Virus record (IMG/VR): IMGVR_UViG_3300041955_000884
Location: 1 to 64,000 of that record
Direction: 5' to 3' (one strand)
DNA: 64,000 nt
DNA from: a virus
A model generated the notes under the pieces. That model saw nothing but the letters and a program-made list of their open reading frames with translations. It was not told the origin of the DNA and made no database searches. Both the position numbers and the translations under genes were made by a program. This document shows, piece after piece, positions 6,318-28,250 of the stretch (position 1 is the first letter of the stretch; every line of letters begins with the position of its first letter).

Positions 6318-7249
6318 GCCGGAAACTCCCTCACCATTAGGTCGGGCGGTATCGGCGCCACTTTGTCCAACTGCTTCGCGAAAAAGGCCACGCCAGCCGC
6401 CGCACATTGGTCGCGGAGTGAGCGCAGCCAATCTGGATTGACCGGGCGCCGCCGAGGTCCGCTCTCGCCGCCAGCGATCACCCAGTCGAGAGCGTGCGCG
6501 CCGATCCGCGTCCAGTCTGGCATGTGCGCCGTGACTTCGCCGCTCGCGAACGCTGCTGATGGCGACGCCGTTAGCCAAAGCGGGTCGAGAACGACCGGCC
6601 CAAGCAATGGTTCTGCGCTGATAAAACGAAGCGCCGCCAGTGTCGCCAGCAGATCGGGGATGCGCTCGTCCGCTCGCTGCTGATCCTCGACGCTGACGCC
6701 GAGCCAGACGTTCGGCAGCGGCCAGCATCCGTCGATGGCGTCGATTGATTTTTGCCATTCTGGATCGCGCGAGCTCCAGTCCCCGCGCGGTCGCAGCAGG
6801 GCGTGCACAGCGCTCCGGATATGATGATGGCGCGCAGCCCCGCTAGGCCATGACGCGAACCACCGTTGCATCCGCGCCGACCGCTTCGTCAGCACCTGGA
6901 ACGTGTGGTGCGGCGCCAATGCCATGACGGCGAACACCTTGTCGATGTGTTCGTCCGGCACGTCCTCGTGGAACAGGTCGGACATGCTGTCCACGAAAAT
7001 GCGGCGCGGCCGCTTCCAGCGCAGTGGTATCGCCAGTGTCTCGTCACTGCACGGCCGCACGACGCCGCTCCAGACCGCGCCGGCCTTTGATGGCTGCGTG
7101 AGTCCAGCGTAACGCTTCTGGCCCATCGCCTGTAGCCTCGCCGCCATCCGCATAGCATAGCAGTTCGAGCAGCCCGGCGAAACGAGCGAGCAACCATGCG
7201 TTACCTGCCACGTCGCATCGGTCCATTCGATGCCGGTCCCATCCGCCAT
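6314..7249 (-). CDS. DUF5131 (phage Gp37/Gp68) family protein
   Basis: TGIEWTDATW, GCSLVSPGCSNCYA, IFVDSMSDLFHE, NVWLGVSVEDQ, WVIAGGESG. Confidence 0.93.
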   Translation of the reverse strand: MADGTGIEWTDATWQVTHGCSLVSPGCSNCYAMRMAARLQAMGQKRYAGLTQPSKAGAVWSGVVRPCSDETLAIPLRWKRPRRIFVDSMSDLFHEDVPDEHIDKVFAVMALAPHHTFQVLTKRSARMQRWFASWPSGAARHHHIRSAVHALLRPRGDWSSRDPEWQKSIDAIDGCWPLPNVWLGVSVEDQQRADERIPDLLATLAALRFISAEPLLGPVVLDPLWLTASPSAAFASGEVTAHMPDWTRIGAHALDWVIAGGESGPRRRPVNPDWLRSLRDQCAAAGVAFFAKQLDKVAPIPPDLMVREFPA

Positions 7250-7708: not shown

Positions 7709-7984
7709 TCAGCCGCGCGTCAACGGGTGGCAGTGCTCGCACCAGGCCCGCGTCGCCTGCCCGCGTAGCGTCACACGCTTGGCGCGGGTGCGGATGTCCA
7801 CCACGTTCGCGGCCACGCTCTGCTCCGTGCCGGGCCGAAGCGCGAAAATGTCCGTGGAGCCGCAGACGAAGCACCGCAACTCCGCGCCAAGCGTAATCCA
7901 GAGGCCGCCGTGAATGCCCGGCGCGCGGTCGGCTGGGAGGTCGGCTTCGGCGACTTGGCGGCCAATGGCGGCGCGGACGATCAG
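7709..7984 (-). CDS. CxxC...CxxC zinc-ribbon protein with non-canonical (CTG) start, absent from ORF track
   Basis: Manual translation ...LRCFVCGSTDIF...AWCEHCHPLTRG*; GAGGAG 8 nt before a CTG that overlaps the upstream TGA. Confidence 0.55.
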   Translation of the reverse strand: MIVRAAIGRQVAEADLPADRAPGIHGGLWITLGAELRCFVCGSTDIFALRPGTEQSVAANVVDIRTRAKRVTLRGQATRAWCEHCHPLTRG

Positions 7985-8382: not shown

Positions 8383-9231
8383 TCAGGCCAGCGCAGCCGG
8401 CGGCAGACCTTCGAGCAGGGGCACCTCGGCGCTGCGCTCGATGGCCCCGACGACATCGTTCAGGATGTCCACCATCATGCTCTCGACGCGCTGCAGCTTC
8501 ACGCCCAGCGTCAGCTTGCCGTCCTGTAGGCGATAGCGGAACCGGACCGGCACTTTGTAGATGGGCACGCCGAGGAACGGCGCGATGCCCAGCTCGAAGG
8601 TTTCCGGGATGGCGAACTGCCCGGCGCTGACCTTGGCCTCGATGCTCTCCATGTTCTGGAACTGAATCTGGCCGGATGGCAGCCGTATGCCGGAGCGGAA
8701 GTTCACGGTCCTTGTGGCATCAAGGTAGGTGGCAATCTCCAGCATCTCGGCGCCGCTCGGCGTGGTGATGTCCTCGGCGTTTTCCTCGATGAACTCGGCG
8801 AAATCCGCCTGGGCCAGCATTTTGCCGTTGATGGCTTTCCACTTCGCCCACTGTGGCGTCTCGCGGAACTCGATTTGCACACGGAAGTCGCCCCAGCCAG
8901 GGCCCTCGATGCCGTGGCCGTTCAGGACGGCGACGATGGACGGACTTCCTGGGTCACGGTCAACATAGATCGTCGCGTCGCCGACATCGCCGTTCGCGTC
9001 CAATACCTGGCTGAAACTGGCCGCGTCGAAGACGGTGACGCTCCCGCGCTTGCGGGCCGGCGTCTCGGCCGCCTTCTCCGTCTCCACGGCTTCGATTCTG
9101 CTTGCATACGCGGCGATGCCCGGCACGAGCCACCACTGTTTGCTGCCGACGGTGGCAATGAGTTGGGCCTTCGCGCCCTGTCGGGCCGCAGTGATAACGG
9201 CCTGAGTGTCACTGGTTGGGGTGTCCGCCAT
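8383..9231 (-). CDS. DUF2303 (YfdQ-like) phage protein
   Basis: AVLNGH...PGWGDFR, QADFAEFIEEN, IPETFELGIAPF...RFRYR. Confidence 0.85.
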   Translation of the reverse strand: MADTPTSDTQAVITAARQGAKAQLIATVGSKQWWLVPGIAAYASRIEAVETEKAAETPARKRGSVTVFDAASFSQVLDANGDVGDATIYVDRDPGSPSIVAVLNGHGIEGPGWGDFRVQIEFRETPQWAKWKAINGKMLAQADFAEFIEENAEDITTPSGAEMLEIATYLDATRTVNFRSGIRLPSGQIQFQNMESIEAKVSAGQFAIPETFELGIAPFLGVPIYKVPVRFRYRLQDGKLTLGVKLQRVESMMVDILNDVVGAIERSAEVPLLEGLPPAALA

Positions 9232-26255: not shown

Positions 26256-27020
26256 ATGGCAAAGCTCCATGAGGTCCTGGCCGTCGAAAGCGGCCTCCAG
26301 GCCACGGCGAAGAAGGTCAATGAGGAGACGATTCGCACCTTCGGCAAGAAAGATGAGCACTTCATCGAGACGGTGAAGGCCATCACCCACTTCGCCGAGG
26401 AGGACAAGCATCTCGACACCACCGAGTCCAAGGCGATGGTGACGACCGTCTTCGACAAGCTGCTCTACACCGCCGGACCGAACATCAAGGCACTGGACGC
26501 CTACCTCCAAAAGGAGGCCACCAACCAGAAGGCCGTCGCCGATCTCGTCGTGGGCGAGACCACGTTGGCCACGGCGATGCCGGCCACGGTTCTCCTCGGA
26601 CTGGAGACCAAACTGGCGGAACTCCGCGCGGTCTACGATGCCATCCCGACGCTGGCGCCGGGTCCGACATGGGTCGAAGACGGCGACAGGCGCGCCGACG
26701 GAGGCGTCTACCGCTCCGAGCACCCCGACGTCACGTTCCGCACCCGCAGGACCGTGAAGCCCATCATCATGGCGCCGGCGACGAAAGAGCATCCGGCCCA
26801 GGTCCAGGCCATCCAGGAGGACGTGCCCATCGCGAAAATCGTGATGCAGCACTGGAGCGGCATGATCACCTCGGCGGAGAAGTCCGACCTGCTCGGCCGC
26901 GTTGACAGATTGCTTCGCGCCGTGAAGCGCGCCCGGCAGCGCGCCAACATGCAGGAGGTCGAGAACCGGAAGATCGGAAAGGCCTTGTTCGATTTCATCC
27001 ACGACGGTATCGTGGGATGA
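26256..27020 (+). CDS. uncharacterised alpha-helical protein (MAKLHEVLAVE type) heading the ncRNA locus
   Basis: AAAGG RBS, ATG 26256, 254 aa, strong GC3 codon bias; APATKEHPAQVQ and RAVKRARQRAN motifs. Confidence 0.9.
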   Translation: MAKLHEVLAVESGLQATAKKVNEETIRTFGKKDEHFIETVKAITHFAEEDKHLDTTESKAMVTTVFDKLLYTAGPNIKALDAYLQKEATNQKAVADLVVGETTLATAMPATVLLGLETKLAELRAVYDAIPTLAPGPTWVEDGDRRADGGVYRSEHPDVTFRTRRTVKPIIMAPATKEHPAQVQAIQEDVPIAKIVMQHWSGMITSAEKSDLLGRVDRLLRAVKRARQRANMQEVENRKIGKALFDFIHDGIVG

Positions 27021-27027
27021 CCAGTTC

Positions 27028-27099
27028 GCCGGGATAGCTTAGTGACAGAGCGTCCACCTCGTCAGTGGAAGACGGCGGTTCAACTCCGTTCTCCTGGCA
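27028..27099 (+). tRNA. degenerate tRNA-Thr(CGT)-like element
   Basis: GCCGGGA/TCCTGGC acceptor, GCTT/GAGC D-stem, TCCAC-CTCGTCA-GTGGA anticodon arm, GGCGG-TTCAACT-CCGTT T-arm; lacks D-loop GG, has C37 and one extra C. Confidence 0.7.
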
Positions 27100-27111
27100 C
27101 CCCTCTCCCAT

Positions 27112-27380
27112 CAGGGACAGCTTCAGCCTCAACCTCAGCGTGACGACGAAGTAGCCTCAGCTTTGTGCCCTGAAAACTTACTCGCGAAACACCGGAAATA
27201 GGCGCGAGACGGCTCCGATAACGCCAGACGCGGGTTCGATGCCCGCGCCCCCAACCAACTTGATGGGGGCTAGCACAGTGGCAGTGCAGGCGCTTGAAGA
27301 TGAGGCCGTAGTGTCGCTGAAAAGCGGTGTGCGAAGGGAAATGCGCTTTCCGTAAGCGCCAGACTTGAAATCTGGTTCCC
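27112..27380 (+). ncRNA. structured ncRNA with circularly permuted tRNA domain, hexamer-repeat domain and anticodon-arm mimic
   Basis: T-arm 27230-46, acceptor 3' strand plus ACCA 27247-57, acceptor 5' strand 27264-70, D-arm 27273-87, closing helices 27222-25/27289-92 and 27209-15/27302-09. Confidence 0.85.
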
Positions 27381-27386
27381 AAACCC

Positions 27387-27420
27387 GGGGGGTGCCGTAG
27401 GGATTGCGGCATCCCCTTTT
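27387..27420 (+). terminator. intrinsic terminator ending the ncRNA unit
   Basis: GGGGGTGCCGTA-GGGAT-TGCGGCATCCCC followed by TTTT. Confidence 0.85.
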
Positions 27421-27503: not shown

Positions 27504-28250
27504 ATGGCACCGACAGTCATCAGCCGAGAGGAAGCGCGCGCGGCTGGCCTGAAGCGCTTCTTCACCGGCGAGCCATGCCCGAGGGGCCACATCGCGGAAC
27601 GCTACGTGCTGAAAGGCCGCTGCGTCGTCTGCGCGAAAGAGGCCGGAGCCGCTTGGATTGCAGCGCACCCCGAAAAGGCCTTGGAGTACTCCCGTCGGAA
27701 TGAGGCGAAGCACCGGGAGAGGCGCCGCGCGAAAAACCGTCGCGTCAAGGCCAAGTGGCGCGCGGCACACCCAAAGGAGAACAAGCGTCGGCTGAAGGAG
27801 TGGCGCGACGCGAACCTTGAGAAGTCACGACAGCACTCGCGGGACTGGGGCAACGCTAACCGCGGGAAGCGCGCGGCTACTGCAAAGCAATGGCGGCAGG
27901 ACAACCCAGAACGAGCGCTGGAGCTGGCGCACGAATGGCGCGAACGGAACCCGGAGCGCTACCGCATAGCAAAGAATGCGGCGAGCCACAGACGCCGCGT
28001 CAGGAAGCTCGCGGCGGAGGGAAACCACACCGCTGATGACATCCAAGCCCTGTGCGCGAAGCAGCACGGCAAGTGCGCAAACTGCCGTCGCGGCATTGGC
28101 CGTTGCTTCGAGGTAGACCACATCCAGCCACTGACGAAGGGCGGCTCAAATTGGCCGTCAAATCTCCAGCTTCTGTGCCCGCGCTGTAACCGCAAAAAGC
28201 ACAACAAGGACCCCATCGCCTGGGCGCGGGAGAACGGCCGTTTGCTCTGA
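27504..28250 (+). CDS. HNH endonuclease
   Basis: FFTGEPCPRGH...CVVC N-terminus, CANC...VDHIQPLTKGGSNWPSNLQLLCPRCN; own promoter TTGCAC-17-TACATT 6 nt before ATG. Confidence 0.9.
   Translation: MAPTVISREEARAAGLKRFFTGEPCPRGHIAERYVLKGRCVVCAKEAGAAWIAAHPEKALEYSRRNEAKHRERRRAKNRRVKAKWRAAHPKENKRRLKEWRDANLEKSRQHSRDWGNANRGKRAATAKQWRQDNPERALELAHEWRERNPERYRIAKNAASHRRRVRKLAAEGNHTADDIQALCAKQHGKCANCRRGIGRCFEVDHIQPLTKGGSNWPSNLQLLCPRCNRKKHNKDPIAWARENGRLL

Follow-up and report, generated by a model that had tools for sequence, protein, structure and literature searches.

The window analysed here, a stretch of 64,000 nucleotides, comprises the first 64 kb of IMGVR_UViG_3300041955_000884, a 107-kb phage record with a GC content of 65% for which no similar DNA was found in named phage records. 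A short unit on the plus strand of this window stands amid virion genes that apparently run on the minus strand, four large minus-strand ORFs nearby being a tailspike, a virion structural protein, an ORF of 3631 aa and a transglycosylase. The unit is a cassette in which a DUF7873 gene is followed, in this order, by a tRNA-Thr(CGT), a hairpin with tandem hexamers in its loop, a second hairpin, a tRNA mimic, more hairpins and a terminator-like hairpin. The hexamer hairpin begins 10 nt past the end of the tRNA and is plausibly the 5' end of a non-coding RNA (ncRNA); the RNA that it opens is ~310 nt long and carries the back-to-front tRNA mimic and the terminator hairpin. The features of the cassette are listed below.

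26256-27020, plus strand: DUF7873 gene, 254 aa (Pfam PF25283, E 2e-72)
27028-27101, plus strand: tRNA-Thr(CGT) (ARAGORN; Rfam tRNA, 48 bits)
27112-27172, plus strand: hexamer hairpin, whole; stem CAGGG(A)CA/TGTGCCCTG, loop with 4 + 2 YARCNT hexamers
27112-27119, plus strand: closing helix P1, 5' strand CAGGGACA, A27117 bulged (covariation in 37 phage hairpins and 32 bacterial loci)
27118-27141, plus strand: 5' hexamer tract, CAGCTT CAGCCT CAACCT CAGCGT, the first CA inside the stem
27142-27151, plus strand: central spacer GACGACGAAG, which contains GACGAAG (sequence)
27152-27163, plus strand: 3' hexamer tract, TAGCCT (27152-27157) and CAGCTT (27158-27163); two units before the 3' strand, family-wide
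27164-27172, plus strand: closing helix P1, 3' strand TGTGCCCTG (sequence; phage covariation; RNAalifold)
27173-27181, plus strand: post-stem element AAAACTTAC, a degenerate copy of the family's YAGCTTYAR
27181-27208, plus strand: second hairpin, CTCGCG / CGCGAG (sequence, fold)
27209-27312, plus strand: back-to-front tRNA mimic, with T-arm, acceptor plus CCA, and D-arm (Rfam YrlA 32.5 bits, E 3e-5)
27387-27417, plus strand: terminal terminator-like hairpin followed by a U-tract, loop GUAGGGAU (sequence)

The first five pairs of P1 are C27112-G27172, A-T, G-C, G-C and G27116-C27168, and C27118-G27167 and A27119-T27166 lie past the bulged A27117. The units of the 5' tract occupy 27118-27123 (CAGCTT), 27124-27129 (CAGCCT), 27130-27135 (CAACCT) and 27136-27141 (CAGCGT), and both the stem and all six YARCNT hexamers that a preliminary description of the window had read at 27112-27172 are found exactly as placed. 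The lag-6 self-match of 17/24 is the maximum of the whole 107-kb genome and is reached at only seven places, the other six lying inside long putative ORFs; likewise, tandem YARCNT (two or more units) occurs three times on both strands of the phage, twice in the hairpin and once at 8506. The hairpin alone shows no extra stability over shuffled sequence (z = -0.34), and the MFE fold of the entire RNA favours pairings other than P1. Since the hairpin is not unusually stable by itself, its reality rests on comparative evidence.

Homologues of DUF7873 number 774 in the protein collection, and 80 viral loci fetched through this protein have the same layout as the window. The hexamer hairpin recurs 3' of the DUF7873 gene in about 40-60 independent phage loci, where it sits, with tandem hexamers opening its loop, between the gene and a permuted tRNA-like module. 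Hairpin finders that used stem strength alone were unreliable and were replaced by a covariance model, R1, built from 12 short-loop examples. This model gave 39 matches at E<=1, up to 76 bits, in 356 kb of DUF7873 loci, all of them on the plus strand and downstream of the gene, against only three weak matches (<=21 bits) in 886 kb of other tRNA-rich phage DNA, and therefore matches DUF7873 loci almost exclusively. In an alignment of 37 distinct phage hairpins fitted to R1, the closing stem is 89.7% paired, versus 66% in shuffled and 34-50% in slid controls, with compensatory changes in 7 of the 8 pairs (63 double-change cells, 18.8 expected). Independently of that fit, RNAalifold applied to a plain MAFFT alignment of the seeds predicts only the closing stem and an unpaired loop. 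The hairpin of the preliminary description is thus a real structure, borne out both by the covariation of its closing stem across homologous phage hairpins and by the RNAalifold prediction.

When the repeats of the 37 distinct phage hairpins were anchored at the stem, a consensus Y-A-G-Y-N-U emerged (Y 87%, A 86%, G 63%, Y 77%, N, U 85%), in which only a U-N-A-R core is conserved periodically across loci, the anchored counts retaining as conserved positions only A2, U6, Y1 and G/R3. In a typical hairpin the 5' tract runs to ~4 units and the tract leading into the 3' strand to two, and ~2 more follow the stem (YAGCUUYAR). The hexamer varies between loci (CAGCTT, GAGACT, TATCTT, ATACTT, TGGTGT, CAAAAT, GAAGCT) and is homogeneous within one locus. 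The R1 alignment leans towards the repeat pattern, its seeds being repeat-bearing, but the lag tests are free of that bias: among lags 3-10, lag 6 comes first in 35 of 65 distinct phage loci (~8 expected; 7 of 63 in a control region), and 32 phage loci beat 95% of their shuffles in the lag-6 test, which is model-independent. The 5' and 3' tracts are of the same sense and thus do not pair with each other, and no complementary repeat that might act as an antisense partner was found elsewhere in the phage genome. Two other pairings of the hexamers were considered and rejected. That of the 3' hexamers with 27296-27323, present in the MFE fold, is not conserved in locus L004 and is contradicted by the covariation of P1. 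A codon-anticodon link of the UCA/YAG units with the tRNA or anticodon arm that follows them would hold for the window (UGA arm) and for L043 (AGA/UCU), but it fails in L007, L015, L017 and L054.

The element is not confined to phages, as DUF7873 matches more than 570 stretches of bacterial genome contigs at ~30% identity, among them Streptomyces, Nocardia, Actinomadura, Micromonospora, Nostoc/Anabaena, Planctomycetes and Myxococcota. The same hairpin lies 3' of DUF7873 genes in Streptomyces (GGAGCG CAAAGC TGAAGC TGAAGC ... CGCTCC), Anabaena/Nostoc (in Anabaena GGAGCG CAAATT TAGTTT CAGTGT ... GCTCC), Nocardia, Planctomycetes and others, and in 37 of 79 bacterial loci the sequence 3' of the gene matches itself best at lag 6. 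When 32 bacterial loci were aligned with MAFFT, with no fitting to a structure, P1 proved to be 82% paired, with C:G to U:A swaps. In anchored counts U and A recur strictly every six bases, five times in the 5' tract and three times in the 3' tract, and the post-stem element reads AGNYUCAGYAUU. The central spacer of the window corresponds in position to a variable inner hairpin in its relatives and to a whole tRNA-like module in bacteria, where the P1 loop encloses a first module with hexamer tracts flanking it on both sides and a second module follows. As the hexamer hairpin is shared by phages and bacteria, that of the window may be regarded as the streamlined phage form of an ancient, widespread element. 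The absence of the repeats from homologous loci would have spoken against the preliminary description; downstream of DUF7873 homologues, in phages as in bacteria, period-6 repeats were found down to ~30% protein identity. Two permuted tRNA-like modules were seen 60-200 nt past the DUF7873 stop in L223, L250, L219, L258, L273 and other bacterial loci. The neighbouring ORFs scanned, seven in Anabaena and three in Streptomyces, are mutually unrelated (transporters, FtsH, HcyBio and several without a Pfam match), so that in these genera the DUF7873-RNA pair stands alone amid unrelated neighbours, and DUF7873 is the only gene linked to the RNA.

In the tRNA mimic of the window the T-arm (27230-27246) is followed by the 3' strand of the acceptor (27247-27253), an A and CCA (27255-27257) and, after a linker, by the 5' strand of the acceptor (27264-27270) and the D-arm (27273-27287). 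A regular expression in which complementarity at 6 or more of the 7 acceptor positions was already a requirement found the permuted module downstream of the DUF7873 gene in 63 of 82 listed loci, and in phages its order is T-arm, 7-nt acceptor strand, discriminator, encoded CCA, loop, complementary acceptor strand and D-arm. The phage copies found in this manner all carry CCA because the expression required it; by eye, an encoded CCA is absent in several actinomycete copies (L241, L223). Covariation of the acceptor is supported independently of the regular expression by the 32 bacterial loci, in which the T-arm is 98% paired and the acceptor 93% paired with compensatory changes in 6 of 7 pairs. 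When permuted tRNA modules were sought by pattern, independently of the protein, neighbouring pairs of tRNAs overwhelmed the output, which yielded only L112, a DUF7873 locus, and L136. The latter shows, at 6340-6440 in a phage tRNA cluster, a small permuted module (T-arm, ATTGTGT-G-CCA, loop, ACACAAT, D-arm) closed by an AGACCC/GGGTCT stem, with neither a DUF7873 gene nor a hexamer hairpin, and may represent a separate, simpler class of tRNA mimic.

The remainder of the cassette is more variable. The tRNA-Thr between the DUF7873 gene and the RNA is specific to one clade, present in L001-L004 and absent in most other loci. In L002 a stretch of ~240 bp, possibly an extra small ORF, separates the DUF7873 gene from the tRNA-Thr; L003 is without it, and downstream the two RNAs appear near-identical by eye. 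ARAGORN assigns the third module differently in these two loci, as Leu(UAA) in L002 and as Thr(UGU) in L003. A three-way junction whose anticodon arm (CU-UGA-AA) is detached occupies 27334-27380 of the window, and relatives show a complete tRNA at this position (Thr-UGU, Arg-UCU, Ile, Gln, Met and others; for example L003 2580-2653); the junction of the window and of L004 appears to be a reduced tRNA remnant. The loop of the terminal hairpin, GUAGGGAU, recurs in a chromosomal copy of Anabaena (L284, about 7830-7860, minus strand), and similar loops, UAGGCAAUG and AAGGGUAU, are found in other phages; this hairpin may be a conserved functional element beyond its role as a terminator. Directly 3' of the terminator of the RNA lies a gene of the HNH / endonuclease VII type (27504-28250), a possible mobile homing-endonuclease insertion.

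The tRNA mimic brings to mind the bacterial Y RNAs, and neither a paper nor an Rfam family describing DUF7873 or its associated RNA was found. Like YrlA (RF02553; Chen et al. 2014, PMC4201824), the RNA of the window has at 27230-27287 the module order T-arm, closed acceptor stem and D-arm, and like the YrlA of M. smegmatis it has a 7-bp acceptor stem with CCA, which is added in M. smegmatis (PMC4201824) and encoded in the window. YrlA and a Ro60/Rsr (TROVE) gene share a strand and lie about 4 kb apart at most, and the motif GNCGAAN0-1G near the 5' end of YrlA is reported as the contact of Rsr (Ro60) (PMC4201824). GACGAAG at 27145-27151 fits this motif, with a chance expectation that we estimate at a few percent; by eye, L004 has a partial version (GACGAAC), L008 a matching one, and most loci have none. 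The partner gene of the RNA described here is DUF7873 and not Ro60/Rsr: no TROVE/Rsr gene was found in the 107-kb phage, and of five bacterial genomes searched two lack TROVE and three have it; in the two of these three for which positions were compared, about 72 kb and about 1.5 Mb separate it from the DUF7873 locus. The YrlA covariance score (32.5 bits for the window, 31-34 for bacterial loci) falls below the Rfam gathering score of 69 bits. We know of no counterpart of the hexamer hairpin in YrlA. Given the sub-threshold score and the lack of linkage to Ro60, the RNA resembles the YrlA/Ro60 Y RNAs but is not a member of that family.

The AF2 model of the DUF7873 protein (pLDDT 88.7) comprises four long helices, several short strands and a long beta-hairpin, and the protein ends in a conserved, Arg/Lys-rich C-terminal helix. 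Neither Foldseek nor a wide structural search returned a significant match for this fold in the PDB or BFVD, or a known RNA-binding fold; PHROGs, NCBIfam, PADLOC, a PDB profile search and the ESM Atlas held nothing informative on its function, and no longer or fused forms were found. A Cas7/RAMP-like fold, which would account for a period of 6 nt, was considered and rejected: the Cas7 chains listed by Foldseek were all without significance (probability <=0.1), and the wide structural search listed none.

The gene itself offers a further observation, in that tandem hexamers are found in its own leader in 18 of 68 phage loci (3-4 expected), an excess that is marginal against a reverse-strand control (p = 0.08) and to which the window and three quarters of the loci do not contribute. 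In L011, L027, L051, L058, L021 and L025 such hexamers lie 10-40 nt before the DUF7873 start and are of the type of each locus's own RNA; they often abut the Shine-Dalgarno site and in some cases run straight into it (L027: TTAATCTTATCGTCAGGAG). This arrangement is the one expected of an RNA-binding protein that acts as a translational repressor of its own gene.

Systems in which a protein reads short RNA repeats are well known. TRAP recognizes 11 (G/U)AG triplets with spacers of 2-3 nt and HutP recognizes UAG with 4-nt spacers, one subunit reading each repeat. Like the sites of TRAP (in the Bacillus trp leader) and of HutP, the hexamer tracts present a short N-A-G-like core at fixed spacing in RNA that is predicted to be unpaired; unlike them, the period is strictly six, ~8 units are distributed in three tracts round a helix, and the candidate protein is unrelated; the analogy with TRAP or Hfq is to be taken as functional only. 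Six nucleotides per protomer are bound by the paramyxovirus nucleoprotein, with its phased promoter elements and 'rule of six', and by the Cas7 backbones of CRISPR complexes, where, as here, one or two bases are conserved per six; for DUF7873, in contrast, no fold similarity was found. Sponge RNAs of the CsrB/RsmZ type likewise display many copies of a short motif in loops for several copies of a protein, but their GGA motifs are irregularly spaced and are tied neither to a tRNA mimic nor to an adjacent partner gene. The conserved phase and the U-N-A-R core, in tracts of the same sense with no conserved pairing and no partner, look like a repeated protein-contact track, and the hexamers are probably the site at which the RNA docks a protein. 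The proposal of the preliminary description, that the repeats form a binding track for an oligomer of the upstream protein, is therefore partly sustained: the repeats are periodic and conserved, lie in a predicted single-stranded loop and are linked to DUF7873, whereas the predicted fold of DUF7873 is unlike that of any known RNA-binding protein.

As to the identity of the protein, we hypothesize that the tracts serve as a periodic single-stranded docking track for several copies of DUF7873, a reading drawn from sequence comparison to which we would give somewhat less than an even chance. The hairpin would then be the 5' domain of a conserved ncRNA located 3' of the DUF7873 gene and co-transcribed with it, in which P1 would hold out single-stranded six-base tracts (~4 units in the 5' tract, two in the 3' tract and ~2 past the helix), and several DUF7873 copies, or repeated surfaces of the protein, would dock at one per six bases. 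The assembled ribonucleoprotein (RNP) would display the tRNA-mimic module or modules and, in some phages, the units by the ribosome-binding site of the gene would let DUF7873 repress its own translation. Alternatively, DUF7873 could bind the tRNA mimic or the terminal hairpin instead of the tracts.

The periodicity might also be read by a common host factor, such as an RNA chaperone, ribosomal protein S1, RNase E or another RNase, or a tRNA-handling enzyme, with the RNA acting as a sponge or adaptor as CsrB does for CsrA. In favor of such a reader, which we consider unlikely, the U-N-A-R periodicity extends unchanged from Streptomyces as far as cyanobacteria and to phages whose hosts have low or high GC, and CAG|CUU is near the preference of RNase E, R-N|W-U-U; nevertheless, we know of no universal bacterial reader of a 6-nt U-N-A-R period, and the strict linkage to DUF7873 together with the leader copies is more simply explained by a co-encoded protein. 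A role of the RNA by itself, be it through tertiary contacts (U-turn-like bends against the tRNA-like module), as a measured spacer or by pairing with another RNA, would suit the bacterial arrangement of tracts on both sides of the tRNA-like module, and UNR is the consensus of the U-turn. This role seems rather improbable, given that the 5' and 3' tracts are not complementary and have no complementary repeat elsewhere in the phage genome, that the long-range pairing of the MFE fold is not kept in L004, and that a target in trans would have to co-vary with each locus's own hexamer.

Since the hairpin starts a few bases past the stop codon in most loci, and lies in the window between a tRNA and a tRNA mimic that both look like substrates of RNase P/Z, it may be asked whether it is a signal in cis for the processing, stability or regulation of the DUF7873 transcript (a 3'-UTR element, an RNase entry site or a coupling to tRNA processing) with no role in a particle. 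Such a signal would not explain why, across phyla, a strict six-base phase is kept on either side of the loop and again past the stem, and we regard it as quite improbable. We give very little credence to the view that the repeats are neutral products of slippage or the reading frame of a tmRNA-like tag. Hexamers are indeed homogeneous within a locus, as slippage would have it, and seven to eight codons followed by a stop can be read in the window, L004 and L007 (ASASTSA*, NSKSNSK*, NSASASA*). However, neutrality is excluded by the conservation of phase over about 30% protein identity, and the tag frame meets no stop in L003, a close relative, and is interrupted by TGA or TAG inside the repeat in other loci. 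An identity as tmRNA was rejected on the grounds of this inconsistency of the tag frame between loci, of the absence of a G:U at pair 3 (no G3:U70 in the acceptor stems examined, those of the window, L004 and L010) and of the lack of an ARAGORN call; Rfam returned only fragments of 14-15 bits over the T-arm.

The hexamer hairpin is a conserved hallmark of an undescribed ncRNA that, in many phages and bacteria, always follows the DUF7873 gene. What is new on its hexamer domain is the covarying closing helix, the phase code U-N-A-R common to phages and bacteria, the three tracts round P1, the specificity of R1 for DUF7873 loci and a modest, quantified excess of hexamers in the leader of the gene. 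Very tentatively, and with doubts that outweigh our confidence, we suggest that the tracts are the assembly track of a new, widespread bacterial and phage RNP, in which DUF7873 protomers would each grip six bases in three tracts round P1 and one or two anticodon-less tRNA mimics would be positioned for action on tRNA or the translation machinery, in parallel to Ro60/Y RNA but with an unrelated protein and a different principle of RNA recognition. If docking on the six-base track is correct, the track would be the recognition code of an undescribed protein-RNA particle spanning hundreds of bacterial species (actinomycetes, cyanobacteria, planctomycetes and myxobacteria) and many phages, and U-N-A-R every six bases would be a simple code, directly testable through its phase. 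The particle would also constitute a second, Ro60-independent family of tRNA-mimicking RNPs and, for the biology of the phage, would mean a function tied to tRNA or translation that is carried alongside the phage tRNA genes.
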